A stretch of DNA of 64,000 bases from Escherichia coli (GTDB taxonomy: Bacteria > Pseudomonadota > Gammaproteobacteria > Enterobacterales > Enterobacteriaceae). The position numbers were made by a program, and so were the translations under genes. The stretch lies in NCBI RefSeq assembly GCF_003334765.1, contig NZ_QOWT01000001.1, one strand, 5' to 3'. The notes under the pieces were generated by a model, which saw only the letters and a program-made list of their open reading frames with translations, was not told where the DNA came from and ran no database searches. Below are positions 51,257 to 51,832 of the stretch, piece after piece. Position 1 is the first letter of the stretch. Each line of letters starts with the position of its first letter.

Positions 51257-51832
51257 ATGGAATACTTTGATATGCGTAAAATGTCGGTGAATCTGTGGCG
51301 AAATGCTGCCGGTGAAACGCGCGAAATTTGCACGTTCCCACCGGCAAAACGTGATTTTTACTGGCGTGCCAGCATTGCATCCATCGCGGCGAATGGGGAG
51401 TTTTCTTTGTTTCCCGGCATGGAAAGGATAGTGACGTTGCTGGAAGGCGGCGAGATGCTCCTTGAAAGCGCAGACCGCTTTAACCATACCTTAAAACCGT
51501 TCCAGCCTTTTGCCTTTGCAGCGGACCAGGTGGTAAAAGCGAAACTGACGGCAGGGCAGATGTCGATGGATTTCAACATCATGACACGCCTGGATGTCTG
51601 TAAGGCGAAAGTCAGAATTGCCGAACGTACGTTTACTACCTTTGGCTCACGCGGCGGGGTGGTGTTTGTGATTAACGGGGCGTGGCAACTGGGCGATAAA
51701 TTGCTCACTACCGACCAGGGCGCGTGCTGGTTCGATGGCAGGCACACCCTGCGGCTTTTACAACCGCAAGGTAAACTGTTGTTCAGTGAAATCAACTGGC
51801 TCGCTGGTCATTCGCCGGATCAAGTTCAGTAA
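51257..51832 (+). CDS. ves: HutD-family protein Ves
   Basis: ORF track 51194..51832; start trimmed to ATG 51257 ([14 protein letters not shown], 191 aa). Confidence 0.85.

Follow-up and report, generated by a model that had tools for sequence, protein, structure and literature searches.

A 41-bp coding overlap between the convergent genes ves and cho of Escherichia coli: geometry, comparative variation and probable origin by stop-codon drift

The ves-cho locus and what its overlap encodes

The window considered here is a stretch of 64,000 nucleotides from E. coli contig NZ_QOWT01000001.1 (RefSeq assembly GCF_003334765.1). It is K-12-type chromosome, running in reverse orientation relative to MG1655 (MG1655 position = 1876194 - window position). 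The genes of interest occur in the order astE-spy-ves, followed by the convergent cho gene and then by nadE-osmE. ves and cho form a tail-to-tail pair on opposite strands that has its last 41 bases in common (Table 1). Both the ORF listing and the sequence place the TAA stop of ves at 51830-51832 and the TGA stop of cho at 51794-51792, with each stop lying inside the frame of the other gene and the GTG start of cho at 52679. The longest ves ORF begins at 51194, while the annotated 191-aa form starts from the ATG at 51257.

The 41-bp overlap was proposed in an initial annotation of the window, and the ORF listing, the sequence and two reference annotations all agree with it. In the RefSeq record of MG1655, cho occupies 1823515..1824402 (+) and ves 1824362..1824937 (-), which gives the identical overlap, and the RefSeq annotation of strain NCTC122 likewise has 41 bp. 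A search of complete E. coli genomes found the 1.7-kb ves-cho locus in 5426 of 5426. A piece of 81 bp with the overlap at its centre was present in 5405 of 5426, with at least 99% identity in 3891 of those 5405. In fact, the overlap is already known, being present in every E. coli annotation, and the overlap of the two transcripts has already been catalogued. Nor does the arrangement stand alone in this region. The 50 kb of MG1655 around the locus contain seven convergent gene pairs, of which two overlap (cho-ves by 41 bp and nudG-ynjH by 35 bp) and two more lie less than 10 nt apart; judging from these seven pairs, tight or overlapping convergent junctions are common.

Table 1. Features of the ves-cho region and of a second convergent overlap in the same window (window coordinates).
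Feature	Position	Strand	Description and basis
ves CDS	51257..51832	+	191 aa, HutD family; NCBIfam, Pfam and RefSeq
cho CDS	51792..52679	-	295 aa, GTG start, GIY-YIG nuclease; related to UvrC N-terminal domain
Dual-coding overlap	51792..51832	both	41 bp; ORF listing and sequence
LexA (SOS) box of cho, CACTGGATAGATAACCAGCA / CTGGATAGATAACCAG	52693..52712; CTG-N10-CAG core 52695..52710	-	31 nt upstream of the GTG; sequence reading
Sigma-28 (FliA) promoter of ves, AACGTAAATCACCCGAGTTGCCGATAAC	51177..51204; -10 GCCGATAA at 51196..51203	+	Published FliA ChIP-seq site and motif (PMC4183435)
C-rich, G-poor stretch in cho-sense RNA	51597..51739	-	55-195 nt past cho stop, antisense to ves; C/G 1.5-1.9 (78-nt windows); candidate Rho loading region
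C-rich, G-poor stretch in ves-sense RNA	51868..52205	+	35-370 nt past ves stop, antisense to cho; C/G up to 2.0; candidate Rho loading region
Published Rho-dependent events in cho	52410..52655	-	Term-seq and Rho data (PMC7815308)
Terminator-like hairpin AAGACCGGCGGTCTT plus T-tract, spy-ves spacer	51064..51088	-	Consensus scan; predicted
nudG-ynjH convergent coding overlap	34297..34331	ynjH +, nudG -	35 bp, 17 kb from ves-cho; ynjH 34059..34331, nudG 34297..34704

The gene identities assigned at the outset, a HutD-family ves and an excinuclease cho, are upheld by curated protein models. Cho scores 579.7 bits against the NCBIfam equivalog "excinuclease Cho" (cut-off 367), with the match covering its residues 1-287, and Ves scores 427.4 bits against the equivalog "Ves" (cut-off 292). 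Moreover, Pfam HutD matches Ves at residues 8-175 (E=1.8e-44), and a comparison of Cho with the PDB matches the UvrC N-terminal (GIY-YIG) domain (E=1.6e-8). The overlap encodes the ends of both proteins: in Ves, residues 180-191 with the stop, preceded by 2 nt of the codon for I179, and in Cho, residues 284-295 with the stop, preceded by 2 nt of the codon for I283. It is positioned beyond the HutD match in Ves and at the extreme end of the NCBIfam Cho model. The last invariant column in an alignment of 62 Ves sequences is I179, and the last nearly invariant column among 44 Cho sequences is L286. In the AF2 models, the last strand of Ves spans residues 173-181 and is followed by coil (a weak model, mean pLDDT 61.9), and the last strand of Cho spans 282-285, with residues 290-295 below a pLDDT of 50 (mean 77.6). 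Considering the moderate confidence of these models, the predicted disorder of the two tails is supportive rather than proof.

In the register of the two frames, the first codon positions of ves and cho face each other, the second position of ves faces the third of cho, and the third of ves faces the second of cho. The variable tail of each protein is encoded opposite the conserved end of the other. Thus the six residues added to Ves in Escherichia and Citrobacter (SPDQVQ) lie opposite the conserved EITELDP of Cho, and the variable 9-residue tail of Cho lies opposite the conserved NWLAGH of Ves. Among 17 loci with a 41-bp overlap, 9 of 14 and 5 of 14 would-be third positions within it are variable, versus 19 of 20 in the flanks. 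Dual coding predicts just such a lower variability at otherwise synonymous sites, which also means that the overlap sequence is constrained. Its length needs no special explanation, because beyond the conserved cores the next in-frame stop comes after 6 codons in Ves and about 9 in Cho, both well within the expectation for a random frame, where stops are by simple arithmetic about 21 codons apart on average.

Promoters, termination and transcript overlap

The initial description of cho as DNA-damage inducible is corroborated by a LexA (SOS) box that occurs at about the same distance upstream of cho in 47 of 47 related loci, and by the listing of cho (ydjQ) among genes with a known SOS box (PMC6590174). 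Work with the Salmonella homologue ydjQ found only a 3.3-fold induction, and a gfp fusion gave no detectable fluorescence (PMC8072944). A different sigma factor serves ves. The window at 51177..51204 is identical to a FliA motif published from ChIP-seq and is of the FliA promoter type TAAA-N15-GCCGATAA (PMC4183435). The same work reported FliA dependence of ves RNA, with a value of 18 in motile wild-type MG1655 versus 0 in a fliA deletion, a difference that was not flagged as significant (PMC4183435). Under a strict pattern, the TAAG...GCCGATAA motif was found upstream of ves in 43 of 66 loci, and GCCGATAA is also present in most of the loci that fail it. A σ70 promoter scan of 50400..53900 returned no sites, an uninformative outcome given that ves uses σ28 and that the cho promoter falls below the scan's consensus thresholds. 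Expression of both ves and cho is low.

Two side observations concern the sequences around these promoters. In this window, as at the identical locus of NCTC122, the -35 element of the ves promoter (51176..51184) is TAAC, not TAAG or TAAA, and several other Escherichia and Citrobacter loci (L004, L006 and L007) have TAAG; the TAAC form might weaken the FliA promoter in the lineage of the window. In addition, Rfam ES036 (CssrF) is matched twice on the minus strand, at 52787..52829 and 59933..59975. These matches are REP/BIME-type palindromic repeats, with paired REPs around a "TGCAAT.TATTGAATTTGCA" core, and one of them lies between nadE and the cho promoter.

No intrinsic or bidirectional terminator was found within several hundred nucleotides of the ves-cho junction on either strand, by a consensus scan or by a scan for hairpins followed by T-tracts, since there is no intergenic DNA between the two genes. 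Likewise missing from the junction is the hallmark of bidirectional terminators, a GC-rich hairpin with an A-tract on one side and a T-tract on the other. The 121 nt around the overlap fold no better than shuffled sequences (z = 0.01 on the plus strand and -0.39 on the minus strand), and an Rfam scan of the whole window gave no match in the overlap. In the published Term-seq tables, there is no curated 3′ end on either strand from MG1655 1824100 to 1825059 (PMC7815308). With no intrinsic terminator at the junction, each mRNA enters the other gene.

Termination by Rho may be what ends these transcripts. By base composition, the two C-rich, G-poor stretches listed in Table 1 are candidate Rho loading regions, one past each stop codon. 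Published data already place Rho-dependent events within cho, including a termination region that peaks at MG1655 1823784 on the plus strand (window 52410; Rho score 3.87, p=2.5e-7) and a Rho-sensitive Term-seq 3′ end 24 nt into the cho ORF at MG1655 1823539 (window 52655; Rho score 3.5) (PMC7815308). It follows that few cho-strand transcripts should reach ves in uninduced cells. The events themselves suggest a premature termination of uninduced cho-strand transcripts, or of read-through from nadE.

The only plausible cho-strand terminator is the predicted hairpin at 51064..51088 in the spy-ves spacer, 700 nt from the junction. This would be the furthest plausible end for cho read-through across ves, and no Term-seq 3′ end has been reported there (PMC7815308). 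The terminator of spy itself has a Term-seq 3′ end at window 51134 and an A-tract upstream. Because of that A-tract, the inner hairpin at 51074..51088 followed by TTTTTT is also terminator-like on the opposite strand, where no annotated gene ends; it could catch cho-strand read-through across ves.

Since the coding sequences overlap, full-length ves and cho mRNAs are complementary over at least 41 nt. The initial annotation had allowed that terminators might keep the two transcripts apart; this cannot be the case for complete mRNAs, which overlapping coding sequences force to overlap. In fact, the ExcludonFinder paper (NAR 2025, PMC12288877) lists "cho-ves" among 165 convergent excludons detected from RNA-seq coverage in at least 50% of 58 MG1655 samples. 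According to the authors, synteny is higher for excludon pairs than for other neighbours, and p19 pull-down could not validate the convergent excludons; 20 pairs that are inversely regulated under antibiotics, from a nine-antibiotic dataset, are listed in Supplementary Table S2 of that paper (PMC12288877). A literature search for mutual regulation or inverse expression of ves and cho found no study or data, and a search for evidence that SOS induction of cho lowers Ves likewise found none. The initial suggestion that induced cho transcription runs antisense into ves therefore stands as far as the antisense itself goes, over at least 41 nt by the coding overlap and the published listing (PMC12288877), but the accompanying change in ves expression is unsupported, with no report of it in the literature searched.

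Variation of the junction across the Enterobacteriaceae

A comparative scan took one genome per species and yielded 67 Enterobacteriaceae loci encoding Ves, with no Salmonella or Klebsiella loci among them. Across these loci, ves and cho stay tail-to-tail, but the length of the overlap varies. The 41-bp form occurs in Escherichia and Citrobacter loci only. Overlaps of 32, 24, 23, 15, 7 or 4 bp are found in Enterobacter, Leclercia, Lelliottia, Huaxiibacter, Kosakonia, Phytobacter and Siccibacter, and the genes are separated by a gap of 2-48 nt in Atlantibacter, Pseudescherichia, "Escherichia sp. ESNIH1" and Enterobacter sp. ENT03. A hairpin-forming sequence is present in the ves-cho spacer of ENT03 at least. 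The conservation that would be expected of a selected overlap was not seen among these loci, where 41 bp is confined to two genera, other genera have 32-4 bp or a gap, and cho is missing in several species. The varying length fits drifting stop codons, and the adjacency of ves and cho without a spacer is old and widespread.

Tail alignments show how the two proteins have changed. The ancestral ends of Ves read ...SEITWLPGH (185 aa) or ...SEITYL (181-182 aa), and in Escherichia and Citrobacter a sense codon, TCN, stands in place of the TGA and adds the six residues SPDQVQ. Cho ends in ...YEIxEL plus a further 0-9 residues, and this tail varies even from one Escherichia species to another.

The comparisons also revealed deletions of cho from beside ves in at least three lineages, namely E. 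albertii and two groups of Citrobacter. In the cho-less loci (L008 of E. albertii; L012, L015, L016, L064 and L019-L021 of Citrobacter spp.; near 3570-3660 of each), the convergent partner of ves is nadE, and a new spacer of 65-80 nt with a hairpin lies between the two. The deletions are clean and end 0-7 nt past the ves stop. Ves is still 191 aa long in these species and has the tail SPxSVQ, including the six residues that are elsewhere overprinted on cho. Because cho-less species keep it, the overprinted tail seems to be retained on its own account, and ves can do without cho. The opposite polarity, in which the cho-less state is ancestral, was rejected: cho abuts ves in distant genera, and the 41 nt that elsewhere also serve as the 3′ end of cho are still present in the cho-less species.

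Other loci have been disrupted in various ways. One C. amalonaticus has a cho pseudogene next to an intact ves, and one Escherichia sp. has both genes truncated. Two E. coli strains, 675SK2 and HCP4S3_I4, are natural variants at the locus. In one, an IS1 element sits between spy and ves, directly upstream of ves; in the other, the end of a Mu-like prophage with Mom/Com genes lies in cho, of which only the 3′ 300 nt are left, and ves is intact.

The modest additions made here to a known overlap are the stepwise evolution of the two tails, the independent losses of cho, and the retention of the Ves tail. Taken together, the series neatly illustrates how coding overlaps come and go as stop codons drift, and it includes the repeated loss of cho in enterobacteria with the overprinted Ves tail retained.

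Origin of the overlap and comparison with known systems

The observations are likely to be explained by an ordinary convergent coding overlap of two unrelated genes that arose through stop-codon drift at a junction with neither spacer nor terminator, where antisense overlap is unavoidable and probably a weak by-product. The overlap itself looks like a usual consequence of densely packed genes. In the ancestral state, the conserved ends of Ves and Cho would have abutted on opposite strands with essentially no spacer, and stop-codon shifts together with short indels would then have made the two unconstrained tails longer or shorter. In the lineage of Escherichia and Citrobacter, Ves would have read through the ancestral TGA position and gained SPDQVQ. 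Each mRNA would run into the other gene and be stopped there, probably by Rho, once translation has ended at the stop codon, or by polymerases that meet head-on. The outcome would be a convergent transcript overlap, an "excludon" geometry that sets a LexA-repressed gene against a σ28-dependent one. This origin by drift is supported by the varying overlap, the conserved cores with variable ends, the lack of a terminator or fold, the losses of cho with ves intact, and a 35-bp overlap of the same kind 17 kb away. Against it can be set the conservation of both the LexA box and the FliA -10 element, the old and widespread adjacency, the higher synteny of excludon pairs, and the reduced variability of sites in the overlap.

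Several of these same points would also suit a functional excludon, in which LexA cleavage raises cho transcription, the antisense passes through the 3′ end of ves and beyond, and ves is lowered by polymerase collision and/or by RNase III acting on the duplex of at least 41 bp; conversely, σ28-driven ves would damp cho. Such a duplex is unavoidable given the coding overlap, no terminator separates the genes, their adjacency is kept in most of the genera sampled, the LexA box is found in 47 of 47 loci and the FliA -10 in most, and cho-ves is on the MG1655 excludon list (PMC12288877). However, this explanation is unlikely when the transcription data are considered: no inverse expression was reported in the literature searched, Rho ends cho-strand transcription inside cho in uninduced cells (PMC7815308), the Salmonella homologue is weakly induced with an undetectable reporter signal (PMC8072944), and ves RNA is very low even in motile cells, at 18 versus 0 (PMC4183435). 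The comparative data argue the same way, with an overlap that ranges from 41 bp to none, some genera having a hairpin-bearing spacer, and cho lost at least three times with ves kept at unchanged length. We regard any mutual interference as a weak side effect, not as a switch that has been selected. It is quite improbable that ves-cho, and perhaps nudG-ynjH as well, is a selected switch through which SOS transcription silences a σ28-dependent accessory gene and vice versa, so that antisense transcription would link the SOS response with the late flagellar programme.

The overlap could conceivably hide some other selected element, for example a terminator that works in both directions, a structured RNA, a small RNA or a dual-coding motif that both proteins require. 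Otherwise-synonymous sites do vary less there, and the Ves tail SPxxVQ is kept where cho is gone, with cho deletions ending 0-7 nt after the ves stop. Yet dual coding alone accounts for the reduced variability, the folding energy is no better than shuffled on both strands, neither a terminator-like site nor an Rfam match occurs in the overlap, and the tails differ between genera in both sequence and length, which makes a hidden element very improbable. It is harder still to believe that the overlap is an artefact of annotation, with one of the two tails not really translated. Nothing specific favours such an error beyond the tails being short, variable and predicted to be disordered, whereas a 3′ overlap depends on stop codons alone, which are unambiguous in both frames; moreover, the curated equivalog models match each ORF along its whole length, and the independent records of MG1655 and NCTC122 carry the identical annotation.

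If SOS-induced cho did repress ves, the locus would be a further case of excludon-type control and would connect DNA damage, in a small way, to the regulon of the flagellar sigma factor. As it stands, the overlap has little significance, with both genes weakly expressed and Ves having, to our knowledge, no established function.

Among known systems, the closest are the convergent excludons of MG1655, since that catalogue includes cho-ves itself (PMC12288877). Most of the pairs described there overlap in their 3′ UTRs, with 95 nt between the genes on average and a predicted terminator that lies within the neighbour's UTR; in cho-ves, by contrast, it is the coding sequences that overlap, and the scans found no intrinsic terminator. 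The accessible text of the catalogue reports no inverse regulation of cho-ves (PMC12288877). The nudG-ynjH pair resembles ves-cho in having a tail-to-tail coding overlap of similar length that is also on the excludon list (PMC12288877), and in that ynjH, like ves, is a FliA-dependent non-flagellar gene (PMC4183435). It differs in consisting of other genes. We know of no LexA control of nudG.

Overlapping bidirectional terminators, as described in a preprint (bioRxiv 10.1101/2022.10.23.513370), likewise involve convergent genes with overlapping transcripts, and head-on encounters of RNA polymerase are proposed there to aid termination. The ves-cho junction is unlike the bidirectional terminators of SEnd-seq work in that no hairpin of their kind lies at or near the overlap. 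In that earlier work, the sites were reportedly GC-rich hairpins with A-tract and U-tract flanks, located between genes. Another parallel is the flagellar excludon of Listeria (the mogR region, under the concept of Sesto et al. 2013), where a long antisense transcript is said to have a demonstrated repressive effect. Like that system, ves-cho has opposite-strand genes whose overlapping transcripts could make their expression mutually exclusive, one partner being linked to the flagellar regulon; unlike it, both genes have low expression, and any repressive effect is hypothetical.

Finally, the loss or shift of stop codons is a source of gene overlaps in prokaryotes, and ves-cho would be a member of this class, in which the stops of both genes have moved around conserved cores that stayed fixed.
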